Below are positions 41,927 through 63,652 of a DNA stretch of 64,000 nt, one piece after another; position 1 is the first letter of the stretch, and the number at the start of each line of letters is the position of its first letter. The DNA is from a virus (taxonomy: Duplodnaviria > Caudoviricetes). The translations under genes and the position numbers were made by a program. The stretch lies in IMG/VR virus record IMGVR_UViG_3300005615_000001, positions 7,508 through 71,507 of that record. One strand, written 5' to 3'. A model generated the notes under the pieces. The model saw only the letters and a program-made list of their open reading frames with translations. It made no database searches and was not told the origin of the DNA.

Positions 41927-42369
41927 AGCAGCTATTCAATCGGGTATTTCACATCGAAGAAATCAACGGGGACGGCCTTTGCCCGACGTACCTCTATCGA
42001 TGGACGCTCCTCCGCGTCGGAAAGCTGTTCGCGATCTACCTGCACAAGTTCGTTGGTGACGATTGGTCGTCGGATCTTCACGACCACCCGAAACGATTCT
42101 GGTCGATCGGGTTGAAGGGCCAGTACACGGAATGGACGTTTGGCGGAATCAGGCTTAAAAGCCGAGTGTACCGCGCGCCTTGGATTCGGACGTTCCCGGC
42201 CACTCACATCCACCGACTCACAGGCCCGACGCCACAGCGACCGTGCTGGACATTGGTGATCGTCGGGCGCGCCGTTCAGAGTTGGGGATTCTGGCCGAAA
42301 CGAACGTTTGTGCCGTGGCGCACGTATGTCGGAAGTGACGCCGCCAAAGAAGCGAAGAGTTGCCCATGA
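41923..42369 (+). CDS. cupin (cysteine-dioxygenase-like) phage protein
   Basis: YLHKF...DLHDHP..FWSI.LKGQYTE...HIHRL...WTL...WGF. Confidence 0.8.
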   Translation: MKQLFNRVFHIEEINGDGLCPTYLYRWTLLRVGKLFAIYLHKFVGDDWSSDLHDHPKRFWSIGLKGQYTEWTFGGIRLKSRVYRAPWIRTFPATHIHRLTGPTPQRPCWTLVIVGRAVQSWGFWPKRTFVPWRTYVGSDAAKEAKSCP

Positions 42370-43598
42370 AACCACTTTGCGTAGACCTCTTCGCAGGTTC
42401 ATTCGGCTGGTCCGCCGGTTGGCTGGAGTTCGGCGGGCGTGTCATCGGTTTCGACATCGAACACGAATCGCATCATGGGCCAGTGCCGCACGGCGCCGAT
42501 CTCGTGTTGCAGGATGTCCGGACGATCAACGGCGCGCAGTTCAAAGACGCATCGCTGATCCTTGCGTCACCGCCGTGTCAGGTGTACAGCTACATGTCGA
42601 TGCCATGGACGCGCGCGAAGCGGATTGCTCAAGCGTTGACCGTGTTGAAGTTTGCCGGCGATGACTCCAACCATCCGCCGTTTCCAGATGGCTACACCGG
42701 CCCGCAGTCAATTGCCGCCCTGAACGAACTCTTCGAGGCCTGCTTCCGAATCCAACGCGAGGCGATAGCGGCGGCGGGACGGTTCATCCCGCTTGTGGTG
42801 GAGAACGTGAGGGGCGCGCAGCCGTGGGTTGGGCGGGCTCGCTGGATGTACGGATCGTACGCATTGTGGGGCGATGTGCCAGCGCTCATGCCGATAACGA
42901 CGAAACAGCGGAAGGTAAAGATGGCCTCGTGGCGGCACCCCTCTGATCCCCGTCACGTGAAGGGTCAAGGATTCAACACGCTCGCCGATCAGCAGACGAA
43001 GGCGGAAGACTTTGTAAAGGTGGGCGGCCCACGCGGAGATGATTGGTTCACGCACCACAACCGGCAGGAGTTCGAGGATCGCGTTACGAAGAACAGCGGC
43101 GGATCATGGTTCAACGTCGCGCACAACACGACCAGCGGGAAAGGACAGAATCCGGATGGAAGGCTCATTCATGGACGGACTGATTTTTCAGACGACGGTG
43201 GGCAGGATCTGCGGCGGATGCGCAGTGATGGAGCCGTGGGAACATCGGTGCTTCGGGGCGACGATGTGCACCTGTTCGGAGTGCAGGGAAGCGGAGCGGC
43301 TGTTCCCGATGGATGGAAAGTCGCCAGCGAAAGCGGACGAAGAACAGACGTAGGCAACGGTGTGCGATTCACATCTCAGGATTGCGGCATCGAGCGACAG
43401 CTACCGACCGAAGAGGATGCCGCTGAAGGCAGAAAGCAGCGCGGATCGGGACGCGAATGGTTCGCTGGCGAAGGCACGATCGGACGCACGACCGGCTCCA
43501 AATCGAACGCCCGCAAAGCCGCATCCGCCCGAATCGCAAGAATCCCGTACGCACTATCGTTGCACATCGCGCGCTGCTACTTTCCATCATCGCGATAA
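42366..43598 (+). CDS. C5-cytosine DNA methyltransferase-like protein
   Basis: Motif I DLFAG, motif IV SPPCQ, motif VI ENV; C-terminal ARKAASARIARIP. Confidence 0.85.
   Translation: MKPLCVDLFAGSFGWSAGWLEFGGRVIGFDIEHESHHGPVPHGADLVLQDVRTINGAQFKDASLILASPPCQVYSYMSMPWTRAKRIAQALTVLKFAGDDSNHPPFPDGYTGPQSIAALNELFEACFRIQREAIAAAGRFIPLVVENVRGAQPWVGRARWMYGSYALWGDVPALMPITTKQRKVKMASWRHPSDPRHVKGQGFNTLADQQTKAEDFVKVGGPRGDDWFTHHNRQEFEDRVTKNSGGSWFNVAHNTTSGKGQNPDGRLIHGRTDFSDDGGQDLRRMRSDGAVGTSVLRGDDVHLFGVQGSGAAVPDGWKVASESGRRTDVGNGVRFTSQDCGIERQLPTEEDAAEGRKQRGSGREWFAGEGTIGRTTGSKSNARKAASARIARIPYALSLHIARCYFPSSR
43171..43353 (+). CDS. candidate nested (+1 frame) Cys-rich miniprotein inside the methyltransferase gene
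   Basis: GGAAGG SD 7 nt before ATG; CGGC...HRC...CTCSEC in 60 aa. Confidence 0.45.
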   Translation: MDGLIFQTTVGRICGGCAVMEPWEHRCFGATMCTCSECREAERLFPMDGKSPAKADEEQT

Positions 43599-49367: not shown

Positions 49368-49876
49368 TCGTGATCAGTGGCTTGCTCACCGGCACCGGAA
49401 TCTCCATCGCGCTCGTATCCCTCGCGTTCTTGTTGTTCTCTAAGACGCCGCGCGTCATGAGGTGCGCCTCCGTAACGAGCATCGGCGTGATGCTGGCCGC
49501 GATCGGTTACGGGATCGCGCCGCAGGCCTACGCCGCAACGCCAACGAACGCCAACGTCATCAACGAAAAAGGCGTCGGCGGACTCGGGCAAGTACTGACG
49601 AACCTGACGATCTCGACGCAGCTCACGGTTCCTACGGGAGCGCGCCATGCGTGGGTCAGCGTGTGGGACAACCCCGTGTGCTGGACGATGGACAACGGCA
49701 CCACGGCGGCGACCGCGAACAGCGGCGGCAAGTGGCCGGTAGGCTTCGTCGCCAAGCTCGACAACGCGGAACTTGGCGGGTACTCCGAGTTGAAGAGCTA
49801 CCGATTCATCAATTGCGATGAAGGCCCGACCGAATTACGCGTGGCTTACACGCGGGCGTGGAGAGCGGGAGACTAG
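49364..49876 (+). CDS. membrane/exported protein, possibly virion-associated
   Basis: Two hydrophobic segments then AYA cleavage-like site; GGAGG SD. Confidence 0.55.
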   Translation: MIVISGLLTGTGISIALVSLAFLLFSKTPRVMRCASVTSIGVMLAAIGYGIAPQAYAATPTNANVINEKGVGGLGQVLTNLTISTQLTVPTGARHAWVSVWDNPVCWTMDNGTTAATANSGGKWPVGFVAKLDNAELGGYSELKSYRFINCDEGPTELRVAYTRAWRAGD

Positions 49877-50078
49877 GTTACAACCAGATACCAAAGCCGC
49901 GCGAGATAGGCTCCGCGTAGATCCTTTCAGGAGGATGACGGCAACCAATGATTGGACGAACACGGTGCAGGGGGCGCGCTCGCATCAGATGCCACGCCGG
50001 TGTGTGGCGAGAAGCGCGCACGAAGCATGGTTCCTGACGCGGCACCGAGCGAGACGTTGGTGCTTTCGCTCTGATTAT

Positions 50079-50154
50079 AGGCACGTAGCCCAATCGGTAG
50101 AGCGCTCGCCTTTGGAGCGAGAGGTTGGCGGTTCGAGCCCGCCCGTGCCTGCCA
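50079..50154 (+). tRNA. tRNA-Gln(UUG)
   Basis: 76 nt; acceptor AGGCACG/CGTGCCT; anticodon loop CTTTGGA; GTTCGA T-loop; encoded CCA. Confidence 0.9.
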
Positions 50155-50171
50155 GTGCTATTCTCAGCGGC

Positions 50172-52184
50172 ATGCGCCGCACCTACTGCCCGACGTTCTA
50201 CGGCTTCGTCTTTCGCTTTCGCATCCTCGCTGCCGGATTCGCGCTCGCGCTGCTGTCCGTGTTTCTCGCGTGTCCAGCGATGCCGCAGACGCGCTTTACC
50301 GTCGTAGGCGGAGGCAGCGGAGGCGGGTCTGGCACGGTCACCAGCGTAGCCGCCACGGTGCCGTCATTCATGGCCGTCAGCGGCTCGCCAGTCACCACCA
50401 TCGGCACGCTCGCATTCACGTTCAACACCCAGGCTCAAGGGCTCATCTTCGCTGCGCCGTGCAGCGGGAGCGGCGCGGTTACGTGGCGAGCGCTATGTGC
50501 GGCCGACATCCCGACGCTCGCACCGTCAAAGATCACCGGCACCGCCGTGGTGGACTCCGACATTCGGTTGACGAACGCCCGCACGCCGACCGCGCACGCG
50601 TCGACGCACGGGAGCGCAGGATCAGATCCTGTGACGATTACGCCCGCACAGGTTTCGGGGACGGCAGTCATCACAACGGACTCGCGGCTTAGCGATTCGC
50701 GAACTCCAACGGCTCACGCCAGCACTCACGCGGCGGCAGGTTCGGACCCCGTCACCATCACGGAATCACAGGTGACCAATCTCGTGTCAGACCTTGCCGG
50801 TAAGCAGGCTACAGGTGACTACCTGACGGCGCTGAGCGGCGATGTCGTCGCCGCTGGACCGGGAAGCGTGGCGGCGACGATCCAACCGAACTCCGTTGCA
50901 CTCGGCACGGATACGACCGGCGGATACGCGGGGAGCTCGAGCGAGGGCGGGGCGGCGACAACGGCCGATGCACTCTCCGCCAACCCGTCCGACTGCGCTG
51001 CGGGTCAATTCGCTAACGCCATCGCGGCAAGCGGGAACCTCACGTGCGCTGGCGTCACCAGCGGCGACGTGTCTGGACTCGCGGCATCCGCAACGACCGA
51101 CACGACGAACGCGAACAACATCGGCAGCGGCACGCTCAACGCCGCCCGCTTGCCAGCGTTCAGCGGCGACATCACTACTTCGGCCGGTTCGGCGGTGACG
51201 GATCTCTCCGACATCAACGCCAACGTCGGCAGTTTCGGAAACTCGACGACGATCCCGGTGATCACAGTCGATGCAGAAGGACGCCTGAGCGCGGTATCGA
51301 CGGCAACGGTAACCGCAGGTGACACGCTTCCCGTCACCGACACGACGGCCATCGCAAAGGGATCGGGCGACACATCGAAGCAGGTCCGGTTCGAAGTTGA
51401 CGGCATGACGGCCAGCAACACTGGCGTCATCTCCACCTTCGGAACGTCGTCTGCGACCACCGTCTCCACAACCGGCGTACATGTCGCAACTGGCTTCGTC
51501 ATAGGTACAGGCGCCGGCGCGACATCTAGCGATCACTTGCTGCGGTACGTCACCGGCAACGCAACGTGGGGCAACGTCTTTCAGTTCGTTTCGGGCGACG
51601 CAAGCGGGTACGAAAACATCGTGGCCGGAAACCTGTACGCGAACTCGGGCGTCAATATCGTGTCGAGATCTGCGGCGACTGGCGTCACCATCACGGCTGA
51701 TGCTGACGGCACAGGAGTCGGTGGCGTGCTGGTACTCAACGGCGATGGATCAGCACCCGGACCGATGAACGGTGGATCAACGCGCATCCGCGGATTGAAC
51801 GGCTCACGCGATGTTGAGAGTCTGACGTCCGAACTTCTCACGCTCTCGACGGGCGGAACTACGACAGCAACGAGCGCCAACCTCGCCGTTGCAAACTCCA
51901 GGATCAAGGCGATCGGCTATCGAATCGCAACGACGATTGCCACGGCGACAGACTTCACGGTCAAGGTCACGGGCGGGAACGACTTCTGCTCCATCGGCAC
52001 TGCCACCACGGCGCAATCCACGCTGACCGCTGGCACGACGGGTGTGCTGGTGCCGTGCGCTGCCGATGACCCGTTCTACCGCTCCACGGCGACCACGGTC
52101 ACGATCACGACAACTGGCACGCCAACCGGGGGCGTGATGCGCATCGTGTTGTTCTACGAGCAGTTCGTGCCGCCAACCAGCTAG
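50172..52184 (+). CDS. fibre-like Thr/Gly/Ser/Ala-rich protein with N-terminal signal peptide
   Basis: Repeats RL.(D/N)(A/S)RTPTAHASTH...GSDPVTI and SVALGTDTTGGY typical of phage fibres; TATTCT 7 nt before ATG. Confidence 0.7.
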   Translation: MRRTYCPTFYGFVFRFRILAAGFALALLSVFLACPAMPQTRFTVVGGGSGGGSGTVTSVAATVPSFMAVSGSPVTTIGTLAFTFNTQAQGLIFAAPCSGSGAVTWRALCAADIPTLAPSKITGTAVVDSDIRLTNARTPTAHASTHGSAGSDPVTITPAQVSGTAVITTDSRLSDSRTPTAHASTHAAAGSDPVTITESQVTNLVSDLAGKQATGDYLTALSGDVVAAGPGSVAATIQPNSVALGTDTTGGYAGSSSEGGAATTADALSANPSDCAAGQFANAIAASGNLTCAGVTSGDVSGLAASATTDTTNANNIGSGTLNAARLPAFSGDITTSAGSAVTDLSDINANVGSFGNSTTIPVITVDAEGRLSAVSTATVTAGDTLPVTDTTAIAKGSGDTSKQVRFEVDGMTASNTGVISTFGTSSATTVSTTGVHVATGFVIGTGAGATSSDHLLRYVTGNATWGNVFQFVSGDASGYENIVAGNLYANSGVNIVSRSAATGVTITADADGTGVGGVLVLNGDGSAPGPMNGGSTRIRGLNGSRDVESLTSELLTLSTGGTTTATSANLAVANSRIKAIGYRIATTIATATDFTVKVTGGNDFCSIGTATTAQSTLTAGTTGVLVPCAADDPFYRSTATTVTITTTGTPTGGVMRIVLFYEQFVPPTS

Positions 52185-57220: not shown

Positions 57221-57409
57221 ATGGACGGCATCGATATCGCGCGAACCATCTACGCTACCGTCCTTGGCTCGGCTCTGCTCGTTTTCATCGTAGCCGTGGT
57301 CAGGCTCGCAATGCTGCCGATGCCTCCGAGTTGGCAGCACCCGAACGTGCCGCCAGCGATGCTGCCTCCTATGCCGAAACCGCCTCCCGACTCGGAGATG
57401 GAACACTGA
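57221..57409 (+). CDS. TM protein with Pro/Met-rich tail
   Basis: One TM then PMPP/PAMLPPMPKPPP. Confidence 0.45.
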   Translation: MDGIDIARTIYATVLGSALLVFIVAVVRLAMLPMPPSWQHPNVPPAMLPPMPKPPPDSEMEH

Positions 57410-58983
57410 TGGCGCCACTGATGACGTTACGTGGGGCGGGCGTGCTGCCGATCGGCGCGACTCCACAGTCAGCCCTCGCCGAGCGCGAGAAGGAACGGCG
57501 TCGCATCGCTGAGCAGATGCAACGAGAAGTGCGAAGCTACGCGGCAACTCACGCTATGCTCGGACCCGAGATCGACATGCCGGGCGTGAACGTGGATCAG
57601 CTCATGCCATCTCCCGATAAAGTCGCGTGGCGCACCGGCGATTACTCGACCTACGATGACATGGCTCGCAACGTCCTCGTGTACAAGGCGTTGAACGAGA
57701 AAGCGAAGGATGTCGTCGAATCATGCGATCTCCAGTTCCTCGCCGGCAGGCCTGGCGATCCCGAGAGCGAGCGTGCGCGCGATGTCGTGCAGGCGGCATA
57801 CGAAGGGATCAACGACCTTTCGATCGCCATGCGGCACGCCCAGCAGGCGTACGAACGCGGCTTCGGCCCGCTGGAGAACGTGTGGGACATCCACGACCGC
57901 GGAGCAGCTAGAGGCTTTTGGGCACCGAAGACGCTCATCACGATTCCGATCAACTGGATCGGTTTCGATTGGCACCGGCAGCCGATGCTGAAGGAGAGCA
58001 GATACAAATCGGATGGTTTGGCGCTGCCGGGGTGGAAGGTGTCGTTCATGCGATGCGGCTCGAACTTCACCGGGTACGGCAGCGGGTACGGTCAGGACGC
58101 GTATCCCACGGTGTGGACGATGCAGCATCTTCTGCTCGGAGCGATGAAAGAGTTGGATCGGTTCGGGTATTTTCCGATCGTTGGGAAGGTGCCTCGCAAA
58201 TGGTCCGATGAACGGATCATCACAGAGAAAGTGACACTCGCGTCTCAGTGGCCGAACGTCATTCTCGTCCGTGGCGACGTTGACGAGCTGGACCTCGGCG
58301 AGCCGCTAGGAGCAACGACCGCCTACTCCGGCGCGAGCGCGAACATCAAGGCGAGACTTGATCTTCTGCGTGTTTGCGAGCAGTGGCTTCACGACCTCAT
58401 CCAGGGTTCGATGTCGAGCTCTGGCAACCAAGCGGAGGGATCGTTCGCCCGCGATGCCGTTGCTTCGAATGATCGCATGTGGAAGGCGCCGTCCTTTGCG
58501 GCCGTGAAGGAGTCGATGATCAATCGCGACTTCATCCGACCGGTGATGATGGTCAACTTCCCGGCGCTCGAAGAAGACGCGTGGCCACATGCCGCGATCG
58601 ATGCCAAGTTCGCGGAAGACCTTTCGCTCTTCATGAGTCTGTGCGAGCGCGGCGTGAAGATGGGAATGCGCATCTCGCAGGTTGTGGTGAGCGAGCGAAC
58701 AAAGATCCCTCTCGCTAAGGATGGCGATGTGGTGCTGACGGCGCCGGCGACCTCCATCCCGATCACCGACCCGGTGCCGATCGGCGAGGGTGCGGATGCC
58801 GTTGGTCGTGCCGTGAAAGCCATGTCCGAGCCCGTCGTGCGGGTGTGGACGAAGAAGGGCATGCGTGAGTATCGGCCGGATGACGCGGTCTACATCGAAG
58901 GGCGCGGCGTGGAGCGCGCGATCAAACTCCAGAAGGGGTTTGAGATCGTGGACGATCCGACGATGTTCGCTGCGGTGCAGTGA
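57409..58983 (+). CDS. portal protein (Mu gp29/DUF935-like)
   Basis: 524 aa; AYERGFGPLENVW, GYGSGYGQDAYP..W, LDRFGYFPIVGKVP, GSFAR, LIRPV-like segment. Confidence 0.85.
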   Translation: MAPLMTLRGAGVLPIGATPQSALAEREKERRRIAEQMQREVRSYAATHAMLGPEIDMPGVNVDQLMPSPDKVAWRTGDYSTYDDMARNVLVYKALNEKAKDVVESCDLQFLAGRPGDPESERARDVVQAAYEGINDLSIAMRHAQQAYERGFGPLENVWDIHDRGAARGFWAPKTLITIPINWIGFDWHRQPMLKESRYKSDGLALPGWKVSFMRCGSNFTGYGSGYGQDAYPTVWTMQHLLLGAMKELDRFGYFPIVGKVPRKWSDERIITEKVTLASQWPNVILVRGDVDELDLGEPLGATTAYSGASANIKARLDLLRVCEQWLHDLIQGSMSSSGNQAEGSFARDAVASNDRMWKAPSFAAVKESMINRDFIRPVMMVNFPALEEDAWPHAAIDAKFAEDLSLFMSLCERGVKMGMRISQVVVSERTKIPLAKDGDVVLTAPATSIPITDPVPIGEGADAVGRAVKAMSEPVVRVWTKKGMREYRPDDAVYIEGRGVERAIKLQKGFEIVDDPTMFAAVQ

Positions 58984-59030: not shown

Positions 59031-59125
59031 TGGCGGAGGGCAAGGGACTCGAACCCTCACTCCACGGTTTTGCCGTGGTTACCCGTTTTCAAGACGGGGC
59101 CGATACGAATTCCGGTCAACCCTCC
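59031..59125 (-). tRNA. tRNA-Ser(UGA)
   Basis: GGAGGGT...CCCGT-CTTGAAA-ACGGG; long variable arm; GTTCGA; CCA. Confidence 0.92.
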
Positions 59126-59130
59126 GGCTG

Positions 59131-59218
59131 TGGCGGAGAGGCGAGGAATCGAACCTCGGCACGCTTTCGCGCGACGACGGCTTAGCAAGCCGCTGCCTTA
59201 CCACTCGGCCAACTCTCC
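59131..59218 (-). tRNA. tRNA-Ser(GCU)
   Basis: GGAGAGT...GCGGC-TTGCTAA-GCCGT; long variable arm; GTTCGA; CCA. Confidence 0.92.
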
Positions 59219-60750: not shown

Positions 60751-60947
60751 CGTACCTGCCGCCTCTTCATCTGTTGCGAATGGACGCGTCGGAGGGGAAG
60801 TACTTCGGTGTCTGCATTGCGCGGGGATGCAAATGGCGCGCTAAGAAGAGGGCGCTGCTTGCAGATGCTGAGCAGGATGCGCGACTTCATTGCCAGACCG
60901 CCAATCTGGCCGAGCAAGCAAAGGTGCAAAACAAGGACGGTTCATGA
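60747..60947 (+). CDS. hypothetical protein
   Basis: GTGA/ATGA coupling. Confidence 0.5.
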   Translation: MTYLPPLHLLRMDASEGKYFGVCIARGCKWRAKKRALLADAEQDARLHCQTANLAEQAKVQNKDGS

Positions 60948-62968
60948 CCGTCATCGACTCGGTTCTCCGCGCGTCCTCCTACCAACGCCGCATCGCTATC
61001 GCCGAGCAAGCTGACCGGCGGCAGGACCAAGCGGTGGACGCCGTGCTCGCGGATGGATTTGATCTCGACTGGACTCGTATCCTCGCCAATCCCGATTCAT
61101 TCGCACCGGTTGATGGCATCGAAGAAGCGCTGCGCCGCGAGTTCAAACGCGAGAGTTTCCGGAGCACCATCGACACGCTCAACCTCAGCGGAAGGCTGAT
61201 CGCGACCTTCATCCAGCAGAAACATGAAGAGGACATCGGCATCATCAATCCAGCGCCGATCCTCACGTTCAAGGAACCAGATCTTTCCGCGCCGGCAGAT
61301 GTCCTCTCCTACTGGAAGCGCATCCTGAAACTGACGGACGGCGAAGCCAACGCCATCCTGCAAAGCGTCATCGACAGCAACACGGACGGCAACATCATCG
61401 CCGATCGCATCACGCGCGAACTCGTGAAACGACTCGCCGCGCTGCACCGCGAGATCACGACGCAGCGGATCGCCCAGGTTGGTACCGGCACGCCGATCAA
61501 CGAAAGCGACACCCTCGCGGAGTTCATTCGCCGAGCGCGTGAAACGTTCCCCGACCAGTCGCGCGCATTGCTGGAGACGGAATATCGAACGCGACTCACG
61601 GGCGAATACGGAGCGGCGCGGCATGAACAGATCCTCGCGCGGCAGGCCACGTTTCCGTTCACTCAGTTTTTTGCGATCAAGGACACTAGAACGACGTGGT
61701 ATTGCTGCCTCCCTATGGGTTCATCGGGGCCTGGGGGCACTGGGTACGTCGCTGCTAGCGATGACATAACATGGTTCACTTGGAATCCGCCGAATCACTA
61801 CCGATGCTTCACTCCGGACACGCTCATAGATGCGAAAGCGACTGCGGCATTTCGCATGTCATACACTGGCGAAATCGTCGAACTGCAAACACGGAACGGG
61901 CGCGTCCTTTCCGTCACACCTAACCACCCGATAGCAACCGCGCGGGGGTTTGTGGCTGCCGAGATGATCCGCAAAGGAGACCACCTGCTCTGCCGCGAGC
62001 GCGATGTCGAAACGCGCCTTGAGATGGTTGGCGCAGTACACGAACAGAATCGCCCACCCCGCATTGATGACGCGTTCCACATGTTTGGTGAGCGCTGGCC
62101 GGTACGGCGTGCGCGTACTGCCGCATGCGACTTCGACGGCGACGCCGAGTTCGGGGACGGCCATGTCGACGTTATAGCCGTCGATGGCCAGCTGCTGGAG
62201 AACTACGTGGTTGCGCGAGCGCAGCTCCTCAGCAATTTCGTTCTCGAAACGGCCGCGGCGCCACCGCTTGCTGCGCATCCTAGCGTCGGCGAGCGTGACG
62301 TACTCGGAGTGTGGCCGTTTCCTGCCGATGTTGGACCTGTGCAGGCGGTCCATCCTGCTGCGCCTCTCGACAGCGGACATGTTCTGCCACCGGAGTTCAT
62401 TCTCTTCGGAGCGACTGCGAAATTCGACGCCTTGTGCGCGAAGGTGCGCGGCGATCGTGTGCCACTCGGCGCCGCATTCTTTCGAGAGTTGATTGACAGT
62501 TGCGCCCTGCCTATACCGAACGGCCAGCACATGATCGCTCAGCCCGAGAACGCGAGCGTTACCGCGAGATCGAACGCCAGCGCGCCGCAGACGCTTGCGG
62601 ATCGCCTTGATGCCGACGCCATATCGCCGTGCGAGCGAGATCATGGTTTCGCCGGCTTGGTAGTCTTGGACGATATCGTTGAGATTCGACGGTTCAGGTA
62701 CTCTGGTCACGTATACGACCTCCAAACGACAACAGGTCTTGTGATTGCGAACGACATTTTATCAAGCAATTGCCGCGCTACGACGTCCCCAATCGGCTAC
62801 CGGGAAGCGCAACGCATGGGCATTCTCGCGGCAGACGGGCGCACGAAGATCGCGGTCACAGGAGGCAACCCGAACCGACCATTCGGTGATCCGCCGCGCC
62901 TTGCGGTCAACCCTGAGAACGCGGATGATGTTCGCGAAGTGAAACCGGCACCAGGGTTCGGAGGATGA
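60944..62968 (+). CDS. head morphogenesis protein (Mu gpF/SPP1 gp7-like) precursor containing an intein
   Basis: LETEYRT...YGAAR, QFFAIKDTRT...C; spliced junction restores PPNHYR-CRAT. Confidence 0.88.
   Translation: MTVIDSVLRASSYQRRIAIAEQADRRQDQAVDAVLADGFDLDWTRILANPDSFAPVDGIEEALRREFKRESFRSTIDTLNLSGRLIATFIQQKHEEDIGIINPAPILTFKEPDLSAPADVLSYWKRILKLTDGEANAILQSVIDSNTDGNIIADRITRELVKRLAALHREITTQRIAQVGTGTPINESDTLAEFIRRARETFPDQSRALLETEYRTRLTGEYGAARHEQILARQATFPFTQFFAIKDTRTTWYCCLPMGSSGPGGTGYVAASDDITWFTWNPPNHYRCFTPDTLIDAKATAAFRMSYTGEIVELQTRNGRVLSVTPNHPIATARGFVAAEMIRKGDHLLCRERDVETRLEMVGAVHEQNRPPRIDDAFHMFGERWPVRRARTAACDFDGDAEFGDGHVDVIAVDGQLLENYVVARAQLLSNFVLETAAAPPLAAHPSVGERDVLGVWPFPADVGPVQAVHPAAPLDSGHVLPPEFILFGATAKFDALCAKVRGDRVPLGAAFFRELIDSCALPIPNGQHMIAQPENASVTARSNASAPQTLADRLDADAISPCERDHGFAGLVVLDDIVEIRRFRYSGHVYDLQTTTGLVIANDILSSNCRATTSPIGYREAQRMGILAADGRTKIAVTGGNPNRPFGDPPRLAVNPENADDVREVKPAPGFGG
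61859..62710 (-). CDS. antisense-nested HTH-HTH-Vsr/DUF559-like putative homing endonuclease (283 aa)
   Basis: Two HTH repeats, NUMOD3-like segment, FENEIAEEL...QQLAIDGYNVDMAVPELGVAVEV...NAGWAILFV; GGAGGT SD 7 nt before GTG. Confidence 0.85.
   Translation of the reverse strand: MTRVPEPSNLNDIVQDYQAGETMISLARRYGVGIKAIRKRLRRAGVRSRGNARVLGLSDHVLAVRYRQGATVNQLSKECGAEWHTIAAHLRAQGVEFRSRSEENELRWQNMSAVERRSRMDRLHRSNIGRKRPHSEYVTLADARMRSKRWRRGRFENEIAEELRSRNHVVLQQLAIDGYNVDMAVPELGVAVEVACGSTRTPYRPALTKHVERVINAGWAILFVYCANHLKARFDIALAAEQVVSFADHLGSHKPPRGCYRVVRCDGKDAPVPCLQFDDFASV
62718..62764 (-). promoter_or_regulatory. extended -10 promoter (TG-A-TAAAAT, 62764-62756) and SD (GGAGGT, 62723-62718) of the nested gene
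   Basis: Reverse complement of intein codons ILS and DLQ. Confidence 0.65.
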
Positions 62969-62969
62969 G

Positions 62970-63173
62970 ATGAGTGGTTCAACGCCGGACGGCATCAGAG
63001 CAAAAGAAGTGACATCATCAGACGACTATCGTGATGAGCGCAGGCCGGTTGGCGTGAGGTACGTGCATCAAGATTTGATGACCAAGATGCACGACAAAGC
63101 GGAACGCTCAGATCCGTGCCCGTGCGGGAGTGGCGTGAGGTTCGGGGATTGCCACTACGATGGTCAACGCTAA
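62970..63173 (+). CDS. SEC-C motif protein
   Basis: RSDPCPCGSGVRFGDCH; GGAGG SD. Confidence 0.75.
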   Translation: MSGSTPDGIRAKEVTSSDDYRDERRPVGVRYVHQDLMTKMHDKAERSDPCPCGSGVRFGDCHYDGQR

Positions 63174-63217
63174 CGATCCAAGGCGCTGAATAGAGTCTAG
63201 GGGCATCGGTTCGGAGG

Positions 63218-63652
63218 ATGAGCATCGGAAACATCTGCGGGCATGTTGATTTGCAGCCGTGCCAGCGTCCTAACCGTCGCGGGTGGAAGCACGCTTACGG
63301 TCGCGATGTCGAGATGCCGCATGATATCTGCGAAGGGTGCGGCGGGTGCGTCGATTGCGGCCAAGGATGTAACGAGAACCCGGTTGGTACGATGGCCTTG
63401 CCGAGCGGCGCGGCGCCGATTAATATCGCGCGCGCCACGCTTTTTGAGCGCCGAGTGTTGTACCTCCGTGAGTTGCAACGCATGCGAGCCGAAGGCGTCA
63501 GATCATCTGCGCATCTGGCATATCTCGACGGCGGCATCGCCGTAGCGCGGGCGATATTGATACGCCTCGGCGATCGGCTCGGACAAGAGCCGAGGTCAGT
63601 TGAAGAGTACTTGCTCATGCTCGCGGCGCCATCAGAATCGCTGCCGATGTAG
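63218..63652 (+). CDS. Cys/His-rich hypothetical protein
   Basis: GGAGG SD; CEGCGGCVDCGQGC. Confidence 0.55.
   Translation: MSIGNICGHVDLQPCQRPNRRGWKHAYGRDVEMPHDICEGCGGCVDCGQGCNENPVGTMALPSGAAPINIARATLFERRVLYLRELQRMRAEGVRSSAHLAYLDGGIAVARAILIRLGDRLGQEPRSVEEYLLMLAAPSESLPM

Follow-up and report, generated by a model that had tools for sequence, protein, structure and literature searches.

A MuF-like head-morphogenesis gene in the window (the whole 64,000-nucleotide stretch analyzed here) probably carries a two-strand mobile element, in which a class-1 intein is read from the sense strand and a gene for a nuclease with two helix-turn-helix (HTH) modules and a Vsr-like domain is read from the antisense strand; we put the probability of this reading at roughly two in three. 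The source is an uncultivated 71.5-kb rhizosphere virus, and the stretch was found in two rhizosphere DNA runs, with identical sequence in both, and in no RNA run among those listed. Comparative, profile, and structural evidence upholds the antisense architecture of the original prediction, but the idea that it belongs to an undescribed class does not stand: the accessible text of a 2025 preprint by Gosselin, Arsenault and Gogarten (bioRxiv 10.1101/2025.01.02.630785) already presents full inteins whose VSR-like endonucleases are encoded anti-sense, among them inteins of minor capsid (MuF) proteins of actinophages. The window is a further example of a known layout and not a new kind of element.

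In the proposed mechanism, the intein sits at a conserved P-x-H-Y-R/C-R site of the host protein and its ends (about 70 and 38 residues) would make the Hint fold, while the roughly 150–200 residues between the lobes are predicted to form an unstructured, stop-free read-through that would need only to stay in frame. Judging from its intact splicing residues, the intein would excise itself after translation and religate MuF. The product of the minus-strand gene is a predicted site-specific nuclease, with two HTH modules and a helical linker followed by a catalytic domain like those of Vsr, DUF559, and I-Bth0305I. If it behaves like I-Bth0305I and other homing endonucleases, its cut during co-infection would fall at or close to the NHYR/CR junction of MuF alleles that lack the intein, and recombinational repair would then copy the intein and the endonuclease gene into the cut allele.

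Table 1. Coordinates in the window of the MuF-like gene, its intein, and the antisense endonuclease gene
Feature	Position	Strand	Detail or evidence
MuF/gpF-like head-morphogenesis (minor capsid) gene	60944..62968	+	674-aa precursor from ATG 60944, intein included
N-extein, 287 aa, ending ...WNPPNHYR	60944..61804	+	44–52% identity to eight intein-less homologues
Class-1 intein, 322 aa, Cys1 ... Ser-Asn322, then Cys+1	61805..62770	+	Pfam, gap in homologues, AF2 model
Hint N-terminal lobe, intein residues 1–70; block A Cys1, block B TPNH at 61916–61927	61805..62014	+	pLDDT 95–98
Sense-frame filler, intein residues ~131–283, open, no predicted fold	62195..62653	+	pLDDT <50 throughout
Hint C-terminal lobe, intein residues 285–322; block F GHVYDLQT, block G SSN	62657..62770	+	pLDDT 89–98
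C-extein, 65 aa (CRATTSPIGYREAQRMGIL...), and stop codon	62771..62968	+	Alignment with intein-less homologues
Antisense gene (predicted homing endonuclease), 283 aa and stop, GTG start 62710–62708	61859..62710	-	2339 homologues, pLDDT 90
Shine-Dalgarno-like GGAGG, 8 nt upstream of GTG	62719..62723	-	Antisense of block F Asp-Leu-Gln (GAC CTC CAA)
Two HTH modules, endonuclease residues 10–43 and 59–92	62435..62683	-	AF2 helices, profiles, structures
Helical linker, endonuclease residues 100–147	62270..62413	-	AF2 helices H100–110, H113–127, H134–147, pLDDT 92–97
Vsr/DUF559-like PD-(D/E)xK-fold nuclease domain, residues 150–283	61862..62263	-	VIA-align, PDB profile, Pfam in relatives

The MuF-like host gene and its intein

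The host gene had been predicted to encode gpF, and its assignment as MuF-like agrees with matches to phrog_220 (minor head protein; 5.2e-7) and phrog_15127 (1.5e-29, mostly via the intein) and with a weak match to PF04233 (E 0.15). A Mu-like portal gene (57331–58980) lies 1.9 kb upstream. The program-made open reading frame (ORF) begins at TTG 60890 (60890..62968, + strand); the ATG at 60944 is the likely true start, picked by alignment to intein-less homologues (P0151–P0159). P283 and H285 of the N-extein are invariant among the eight intein-less homologues, as are the residues C, R, S, P, Y, E, and A of the C-extein. A search for related loci in viral contigs with the N-extein as query returned no relative. 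Intein-less alleles of MuF exist and are potential targets.

The boundaries of the predicted 322-residue intein and its Hint blocks were corroborated by the intein-less homologues, by the Pfam family Intein_splicing (PF14890; 1.7e-9, over the cut-off), and by a Hint-fold AF2 model. The gap in all eight homologues corresponds exactly to C1–N322 (61805–62770), and NHYR and CR are contiguous there. The window retains C1, TPNH (residues 38–41), GHVYDLQT, SSN (ending in N322), and C+1; in 42 related inteins, C1, Y20, G22, T38, H41, G48, and N322 are invariant and G301, H302, V303, and Y304 nearly so. The penultimate intein residue is Ser instead of His, and many relatives are alike in this respect. 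Comparison of the intein model with the Mtu RecA mini-intein gave Z 13.3 (rmsd 1.3 Å over 105 residues), and 64 chains in total matched at Z of at least 8.

Canonical bifunctional inteins (PI-SceI, PI-PfuI, and TliVMA) have the same Hint fold (Z 10–12 to 1dq3, 2cw7, and 7qss) and carry an endonuclease module between the lobes. Their module, a LAGLIDADG or HNH domain, is translated in frame as part of one polypeptide, whereas the window has a disordered in-frame filler and a separate predicted antisense enzyme. Hint structure is seen only at the two ends of the sense AF2 model, with disorder between, in keeping with the earlier description of the middle as antisense filler; residues 81–130 form a confidently modeled sense segment (pLDDT 79–93). 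The sense filler is the antisense shadow of the DNA-binding half of the endonuclease.

The antisense gene and its predicted product

The minus-strand ORF was found just as first described, with no interruption and in codon register with the sense frame, such that sense residue r is opposite antisense residue 303-r. About 850 nt are read on both strands, and the last ~50 residues of the antisense ORF lie over Hint blocks A–B, close to the overlap of ~45 residues given previously. The endonuclease stop codon (TGA, 61861–61859) is the reverse complement of a sense Ser codon (TCA), and the GTG start is the reverse complement of the block F His codon (CAC). From an upstream TTG the ORF would be 288 amino acids long, compared with 283 from the GTG; GTG is a minority start among the relatives, where ATG is usual.

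A new detail is that the start codon and Shine-Dalgarno sequence of the endonuclease gene lie inside intein block F, where codon choice is biased. An upstream GGAG is present in 34 of the 48 loci with a locatable block F. The block F Leu codon is CTC in 38/47 loci against a 27% background (p 1e-14), and the block F His codon is CAT in 39/49 loci against a 40% background (p 1e-8), both p-values counting related loci as independent. The original prediction had the antisense protein expressed separately and uncoupled from late gpF; this may be so, but in a scan of 61400–63400 neither strand had a sigma-70-like promoter, and the single terminator-like hairpin was no more than shuffled sequences gave. 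It is possible, although the odds are somewhat against it, that the junction is co-adapted, with block F doubling as the translation-initiation region of the endonuclease, the CAT and CTC choices under selection, and ~110 codons folded and functional both ways. The dual-coding stretch may comprise endonuclease residues 173–283 and intein residues 20–130, with the nuclease core opposite sense residues 81–130. If true, this would be among the longest functional antisense dual-coding stretches in a virus and would explain why the intein is passed on together with its endonuclease. Neither the block F signals nor such dual coding comes up in the accessible text of the preprint.

Structure modeling gave a Hint fold at the ends of the sense protein and an HTH-HTH-Vsr-like fold for the antisense protein (AF2 pLDDT 90, pTM 0.72). 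The two HTH repeats and the Vsr/DUF559-type domain proposed earlier both drew support from profiles and structure. One PDB profile, 2lvs, spans both HTH repeats (8e-9) and another, 3hrl, matches the nuclease domain (6.6e-6); HTH_58 or HTH_23 is found in 41–49 of 63 family members, and the modules resemble the paired, Tc3, and Mos1 HTH (Z 5–6.5). In VIA-align comparisons, the nuclease domain was closest to Vsr (1cw0, Z 10.2, rmsd 2.8, 114 amino acids; 1vsr, Z 9.6), followed by the DUF559 protein 3hrl (Z 9.2) and I-Bth0305I (3r3p, Z 8.8, rmsd 3.2 Å, 94 residues). Foldseek against the PDB with the whole multi-domain model gave no match at E<=0.001. The window protein scores 21.5 bits against PF18741 (E 2.5e-4; cut-off 38.2), and at E<=0.01 PF18741 is matched by 49/63 relatives and DUF559 by 15/63. 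The segment between the DNA-binding and nuclease domains, previously called NUMOD3-like, had no Pfam NUMOD match in the window protein or its relatives and is modeled as a helical linker.

The nuclease domain carries E156, Q173, Y179, N180, D182, and E193 at conserved columns, and the residues that are invariant in the family (G69, R98, D182, and E193) are all present in the window copy. Six columns with a conservation of 80% or more are altered in it (S71T, R83W, A123L, A126S, G167N, and R210H), including two arginines present in 58/62 relatives, which are replaced by Trp and His. The original prediction had cautioned that a usual ExDGxxH motif reads EVACGS here. That motif is not conserved in the family (the Glu alone is invariant, and a His follows in 34/63 members), but the doubt about activity stands, now by way of R83W and R210H. 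As far as its sequence tells, the window copy keeps the acidic core and full length, but given these two replacements its product may still be active, may be weakened, or may have lost activity recently.

The leading alternative, which we consider unlikely but give about a one-in-five share of our belief, is that the element is a decaying relic: the intein splices and is inherited vertically, and the endonuclease is already inactive, its ORF open only through short elapsed time or the constraint of a GC-rich sense frame. Both arginine replacements and the four other altered columns would suit such a relic, as would the GTG start, and for the window alone (60% GC) the probability of an open antisense frame by chance is about 0.10. 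Some VSR-like intein groups also look vertically inherited, according to the accessible text of bioRxiv 10.1101/2025.01.02.630785. Decay is at odds, however, with a full-length ORF that retains all eight of the conserved residues named above, a perfect GGAGG at the correct spacing, and an AF2 model that is confident throughout; His 210 and Lys 209 also retain positive or polar character.

Conservation of both frames across the family

An exhaustive HMMER search with the antisense protein identified 2339 homologues at E<=1e-3, of which 666 pass E<=1e-10; word- and pattern-based searches of proteins and genome contigs with the same query, which are too insensitive, returned nothing. The nearest relative (P0001, 44% identity) is likewise antisense within a MuF intein. 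Relatives occur in phages of Aggregatibacter/Haemophilus, Salmonella, E. coli, Pseudomonas, Vibrio, and Idiomarinaceae, and the family is therefore far wider than PhagesDB. The Gordonia phages Malisha, Angelicage, Fosterous, Affeca, and Vivi2 were detected by tblastn (28%–30% identity over 90%–100% of the protein), all under MuF-like genes, and opposite-strand placement was confirmed for Malisha; Gordonia phages of the database used by Gosselin et al. are direct tblastn relatives of the window protein.

In the 83 related loci and the contig of the nearest relative, the gene is always lodged in an intein, and with few exceptions the insertion site is the MuF N/C-R site. This placement argues against a domesticated or independent nuclease that is expressed but does not mobilize the intein, acting instead as a nested selfish element in a safe harbor, a DNA-binding regulator, or an agent of phage-phage exclusion. 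Such a role would be in line with the pair of HTH modules, a typical feature of regulators and transposases, and with a family that lacks the EDxHD His and Asp, but we regard it as improbable: some inteins of this type have a patchy, horizontal-transfer-like distribution (bioRxiv 10.1101/2025.01.02.630785, accessible text), and intein-less MuF alleles are available for a mobilizing enzyme to act on.

The 83 loci range from 40% to 74% GC and come from phages of Aggregatibacter, Gordonia, and E. coli and from IMG/VR contigs. A stop-free antisense frame in related inteins had been put forward as a check of the original prediction, and all 83 loci keep the endonuclease frame open together with the frame that faces it in the same register. 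Over 67 distinct loci, ~289 stop-making codons (TTA, CTA, or TCA) were expected and one or none was seen per frame, the single sightings being counting artefacts. The significance of the open antisense frame lies in these related loci and not in the window itself. Because the sense frame is unbroken across the insert in every locus, continuous translation must be required, which is the sole sensible reading. This leaves very little room for a fractured gene, in which MuF would be made as two polypeptides joined by a trans-splicing split intein around a free-standing endonuclease and never as one read-through chain. Vsr-like endonuclease genes do lie between split-intein halves at 12 metagenomic loci (Dassa et al., 2009; PMC2677866), and public gene callers break up MuF where the endonuclease ORF lies (locus L086), but the window shows neither an internal stop nor a restart.

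The pattern of substitutions favors the antisense frame. In all pairs at 60%–76% nucleotide identity, differences pile up at position 3 of the endonuclease codons, and amino acid identity is higher in the endonuclease frame; even when the alignment was guided by the sense frame, sense amino acid identity was below antisense in 96/96 pairs. The ratio of position 3 to position 1 differences is 1.4–1.6 over endonuclease residues 61–240 and flips to 0.8–0.9 over Hint blocks A–B. Judged by these codon positions, selection keeps both frames open, its main target being the antisense frame in the middle of the insert and the sense (Hint) frame at either end, as measured across the family; the nearest relative of the window copy is only 44% identical in amino acids, and the two metagenome samples that contain the window copy are identical. 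Least credible of all is a shadow ORF, in which the minus frame is no gene and is open and conserved-looking only as the mirror of a GC-rich conserved sense frame: same-register antisense frames are indeed most often open in GC-rich DNA (hence the chance value for the window), and sense motifs such as DFxGD mirror antisense motifs, so that similarity in one frame implies some in the other, but the double frame is also open in single low-GC loci (chance probability of no stop 1e-5 to 3e-8), the substitution patterns point the other way, the antisense product folds confidently where the sense middle is disordered, and its matches to profiles of solved HTH and DUF559 proteins are independent.

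Relation to known systems

The intein with an antisense endonuclease gene is closest to the elements of Gosselin et al. (bioRxiv 10.1101/2025.01.02.630785). In the accessible text of that preprint, the intein is likewise unsplit, with a Vsr-like ORF on the opposite strand between the splicing blocks and in the same type of host protein, and the structural lead is common to both studies (HHpred match 3R3P in theirs, and the 3r3p alignment in ours). Their elements are from actinophages, whereas ours is from an uncultivated rhizosphere virus, and a further difference, as far as the accessible text describes their layout, is that the window ORF begins in block F and ends over blocks A–B. Their text does not mention a start codon, ribosome binding, or a promoter, and no per-frame codon-position or stop-avoidance test is reported in its accessible part. 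With the window, the element family is seen to extend far outside the actinophages, taking in soil viromes as well as phages of Pasteurellaceae, enterobacteria, Pseudomonas, and Vibrio. The window also adds an endonuclease ribosome-binding site and start codon made of intein block F. It also reveals a recurrent trap for annotation pipelines, in which standard gene callers miss the endonuclease or split the head gene.

An intein can, on this evidence, outsource its mobility enzyme to the opposite strand, placing two frames over about 850 bases under joint constraint. The same principle, an endonuclease gene opposite a contiguous intein, applies to the anti-sense LAGLIDADG ORFs in inteins of Synechocystis DnaX and a Chloroflexus SpoVR-like protein (Gorbalenya, 1998; Gogarten, 2002; both as cited in the accessible text of the preprint), but with another nuclease family. 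In fractured genes (PMC2677866), too, the place in a phage intein where an endonuclease inserts is taken by a Vsr-like nuclease that has DNA-binding modules at its N terminus. Those loci have both intein and host gene split in two, with the endonuclease as a separate, non-overlapping ORF, whereas the window has a contiguous intein with the endonuclease on the complementary strand. The integration of free-standing endonucleases into inteins was proposed by Dassa et al. (2009), and our data support the idea of such invasion of pre-existing splicing elements. For tool builders, the family is a large set of compact predicted HTH-Vsr nucleases with a presumptive target.

I-Bth0305I is the prototype of the EDxHD enzymes, with residues E170, D196, H213, and D222 (Taylor et al., 2011; PMC3239194; PDB: 3R3P), and is encoded on the sense strand in a group I intron, whereas the window endonuclease is antisense in an intein. 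The domain order is the same, with two HTH/NUMOD-like modules followed by the Vsr fold, and E156 and D182 are the counterparts of the first Glu and the Mg-binding Asp. The counterparts of H213 and D222 are not conserved, the His of some family members being absent in the window; the mechanism therefore cannot simply be copied from I-Bth0305I. The family instead shows an invariant Glu at position 193 and, in the following helix, where no conserved Asp lies, an Arg at position 210 that is nearly invariant but replaced by His in the window; this is closer to DUF559/REase_MTES_1575.

An intein in the MuF-like gene

The MuF-like gene lies within a mechanical ORF that matched phrog_220 (phage minor-head/MuF families) at 5.2e-7 and PF04233 weakly, and its start was placed at the ATG at 60944 by alignment with homologues. 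Eight intein-less homologues of 333–347 aa (44–52% identity) matched both MuF flanks, and the one gap in the alignment was exactly the 322-aa insert. Intein-less MuF alleles therefore exist. The host protein reads ...NHYR|CR... at the insertion site, and the intein-less junction is ...CCGAATCACTACCGA|TGCCGCGCTACG... Cys is the first residue of the insert and Ser-Asn its last two, ahead of Cys+1; searched alone, the insert matched the intein splicing domain PF14890 at 1.7e-9, exceeding the curated Pfam cut-off.

An AlphaFold2 model of the sense-frame intein, built with 42 relatives, was confident for residues 1–70 and 285–322, and these ends superposed on the Mtu RecA mini-intein (Z 13.3, rmsd 1.3 Å) as well as on other solved inteins. 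Both the limits of the intein and its Hint fold are thereby shown. The original prediction, made from the DNA sequence alone, had the coordinates and motifs right, both for the gap and for an unbroken minus-strand ORF in the same register; its description of the intein interior as "antisense filler" was also apt, with residues 130–283 at pLDDT <50.

Downstream, a 67-aa ORF begins 2 nt past the MuF stop and terminates in a SEC-C zinc-binding motif (PF02810, 4.1e-8), which is unusual immediately 3' of a head-morphogenesis gene.

Features of the locus and its surroundings, with the ratio of antisense position-3 to position-1 differences along the endonuclease gene
Feature	Position	Strand	Remark
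MuF-like gene with intein	60890..62968	+	mechanical ORF
Intein	61805–62770	+
Unbroken antisense ORF	62725..61859	-	same codon register as sense frame
Endonuclease start to first HTH	residues 1–60	-	ratio about 1.05–1.17; overlaps block F and first HTH
Endonuclease middle	residues 61–240	-	ratio 1.4–1.6; overlaps filler and nuclease core
Endonuclease C terminus	residues 241–283	-	ratio 0.79–0.91, last three residues 0.36; overlaps Hint blocks A–B
67-aa ORF	62970–63173	+
tRNA-Ser pair	59031–59218	-
Mu-like portal gene	57331–58980
tRNA-Gln	50079–50154	+
788-aa mechanical ORF	49818–52184
412-aa ORF	42360–43598	+

A conserved putative endonuclease gene on the opposite strand

Antisense residue 303-r faces sense residue r, and alignment with relatives indicates that the antisense protein likely starts at the GTG at 62710. 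TTA, CTA and TCA account for only 3 of the 376 MuF extein codons; with this codon usage, an open 283-codon antisense frame has a probability of ~0.10, so openness is weak evidence in the window alone. The comparative evidence that the ORF is a gene is strong. A tblastn search placed the antisense protein in 58 phage records (Gordonia, Aggregatibacter/Haemophilus, Pseudomonas, Salmonella, Vibrio and Idiomarinaceae), and the genes overlying the listed matches were MuF-like, head-protein or unnamed. For Aggregatibacter phage Aaphi23, Gordonia phage Malisha and E. coli phage Snoke, the matching ORF was intact (338, 316 and 269 aa, respectively) and ran opposite to the annotated head gene. These three and 80 further IMG/VR loci were compared. 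The endonuclease frame was open in 83/83 loci, as was the same-register frame opposite it, across 393–1606 codons, and the other two opposite frames were short. Over 67 distinct loci, ~289 stop-making codons were expected from extein codon usage and essentially none was observed; at 40–47% GC, the chance of openness for a single locus was mostly 1e-5 to 3e-8. An exhaustive HMMER search returned 2339 predicted proteins at E<=1e-3, of which 666 reached E<=1e-10. The nearest homologue (44% identity) likewise lies antisense to a MuF intein, this one inserted at N|CR.

The AlphaFold2 model of the antisense protein, built from a 63-sequence alignment (mean pLDDT 90, pTM 0.72), shows a pair of HTH modules of three helices each, joined by a helical linker to an alpha/beta domain. 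The latter, residues 150–283, matched the Vsr endonuclease 1cw0 (Z 10.2, rmsd 2.8 Å, 114 aa), the DUF559 protein 3hrl (Z 9.2) and the I-Bth0305I catalytic domain 3r3p (Z 8.8). From sequence alone, the family profile matched the tandem-HTH protein 2lvs at 8e-9 and 3hrl at 6.6e-6, and Pfam assigned REase_MTES_1575 to 49/63 members and DUF559 to 15/63. These data show that the antisense gene, with its HTH modules and Vsr-like domain, is conserved and that both frames are jointly maintained.

The two-strand layout is annotated in opposite ways. Public gene calls at two related loci, L086 (674–1579 plus flanks) and L084, include the antisense endonuclease ORF and split the surrounding MuF into small genes, whereas in GenBank phage records the head gene alone is annotated; either style drops one of the two products. 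At four loci (L009, L017, L021 and L065), inteins with the same antisense endonuclease start with Ala-Glu instead of Cys, which suggests that the layout extends to another class of splicing (Ala1 or class 3-like). Six further inteins (L013, L049, L055, L057, L072 and L003, the last being Snoke) are shorter, at 268–275 aa. Their endonucleases lack the first HTH module and match from approximately window residue 62; therefore, the number of HTH modules varies in the DNA-binding half of the family.

In the intein model, residues 81–130 (62045–62194, plus strand) extend beyond the canonical Hint N lobe at pLDDT 79–93 and face the endonuclease catalytic core (D182, E193). Either the N lobe truly extends into this segment and both strands encode folded protein here, or the prediction is an artefact of conservation mirrored from the other strand.

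Selection on two frames and candidate initiation signals of the antisense ORF

In all locus pairs at 60–76% nucleotide identity, differences clustered at antisense codon position 3 (sense position 1), and amino acid identity was higher in the antisense than in the sense frame. The antisense-frame bias persisted in 96/96 pairs when the alignment rested on the sense translation; differences at sense codon positions 1, 2 and 3 then numbered 12834, 6911 and 10157, unlike the profile of a normal protein-coding stretch. Along the gene, the excess of antisense position-3 over position-1 differences gave way to a deficit (see table); the frame under selection is thus the endonuclease's mid-gene and the intein's over the N-terminal Hint lobe. 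Frame-specific selection is thereby demonstrated.

Read on the minus strand, the block-F His codon supplies the antisense start (CAC to GTG in the window), and the codons for block-F Asp-Leu-Gln yield a GGAGG 8 nt upstream of it. Across loci in which block F could be located, the His codon was CAT (giving ATG) in 39/49 versus 40% CAT in exteins (binomial p 1e-8, the loci being related), and the Leu codon was CTC (giving GAG of GGAG) in 38/47 versus 27% (binomial p 1e-14, with the same relatedness). Such a codon bias would be expected if initiation of the antisense ORF were under selection. A scan of the locus for a sigma-70-like promoter found none. We propose that translation of the precursor would read through the filler and the intein would splice out, leaving a ligated MuF of roughly 352 aa, and that the antisense gene would be transcribed, with its translation beginning at the block-F signals. 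The resulting protein could then cut intein-less MuF near NHYR|CR, and repair would copy the element.

Relation to described elements, and the window copy

In their preprint, Gosselin, Arsenault and Gogarten report anti-sense VSR-like endonucleases within full inteins, those of minor capsid proteins included. They describe minor capsid inteins as exclusively of non-canonical kinds, give a link to 3R3P by HHpred, propose an origin from a free-standing endonuclease invading an intein, and cite anti-sense LAGLIDADG inteins from 1998 and 2002 (bioRxiv 10.1101/2025.01.02.630785). Vsr-like endonuclease genes have also been located between split-intein halves (Dassa et al., 2009, PMC2677866). I-Bth0305I has been characterised and its EDxHD motif defined (Taylor et al., 2011, PMC3239194). 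The fold and domain order of I-Bth0305I are common to the window's endonuclease family, but the motif's His and second Asp are not, and assignment of the family to EDxHD was rejected on that account. The class is therefore known and the window holds a new member: the original prediction was confirmed in its observation and right in substance in its interpretation, but its suggestion of an undescribed class fails. The increments are block-F initiation signals with biased codons, an endonuclease ORF overlapping both Hint lobes, family breadth beyond actinophages, and the substitutions in the window copy.

The window endonuclease keeps all of the invariant (G69, R98, D182 and E193) and near-invariant residues (E156, Q173, Y179 and N180). 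The worry that EVACGS in place of ExDGxxH marks a degenerate nuclease does not apply, as Glu alone of those residues is invariant and His follows in just 34/63 members. The protein deviates at six columns conserved at >=80%; at two of these, an Arg found in 58/62 relatives is replaced (R83W, second HTH; R210H, nuclease domain), and the start is GTG, not ATG. On these residues, the activity of the copy may be intact, reduced or recently lost.

The IMG/VR record is 71,507 bp with direct terminal repeats and is rated complete; the window covers bases 7508–71507, with a uniform GC of ~60%. Its sequence occurred with zero differences in two rhizosphere metagenome runs, and no RNA run contained it. 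The portal protein has a single distant relative among cultured phages (24% identity). The N terminus of the 412-aa ORF matched C-5 cytosine DNA methylase weakly and below threshold (PF00145, E 0.0019). A tRNA-Gln gene lies within the span of the 788-aa ORF, for which there was no Pfam match. Between the portal and MuF genes, a tandem pair of tRNA-Ser genes (anticodons TGA and GCT) is oriented against the flanking late genes.
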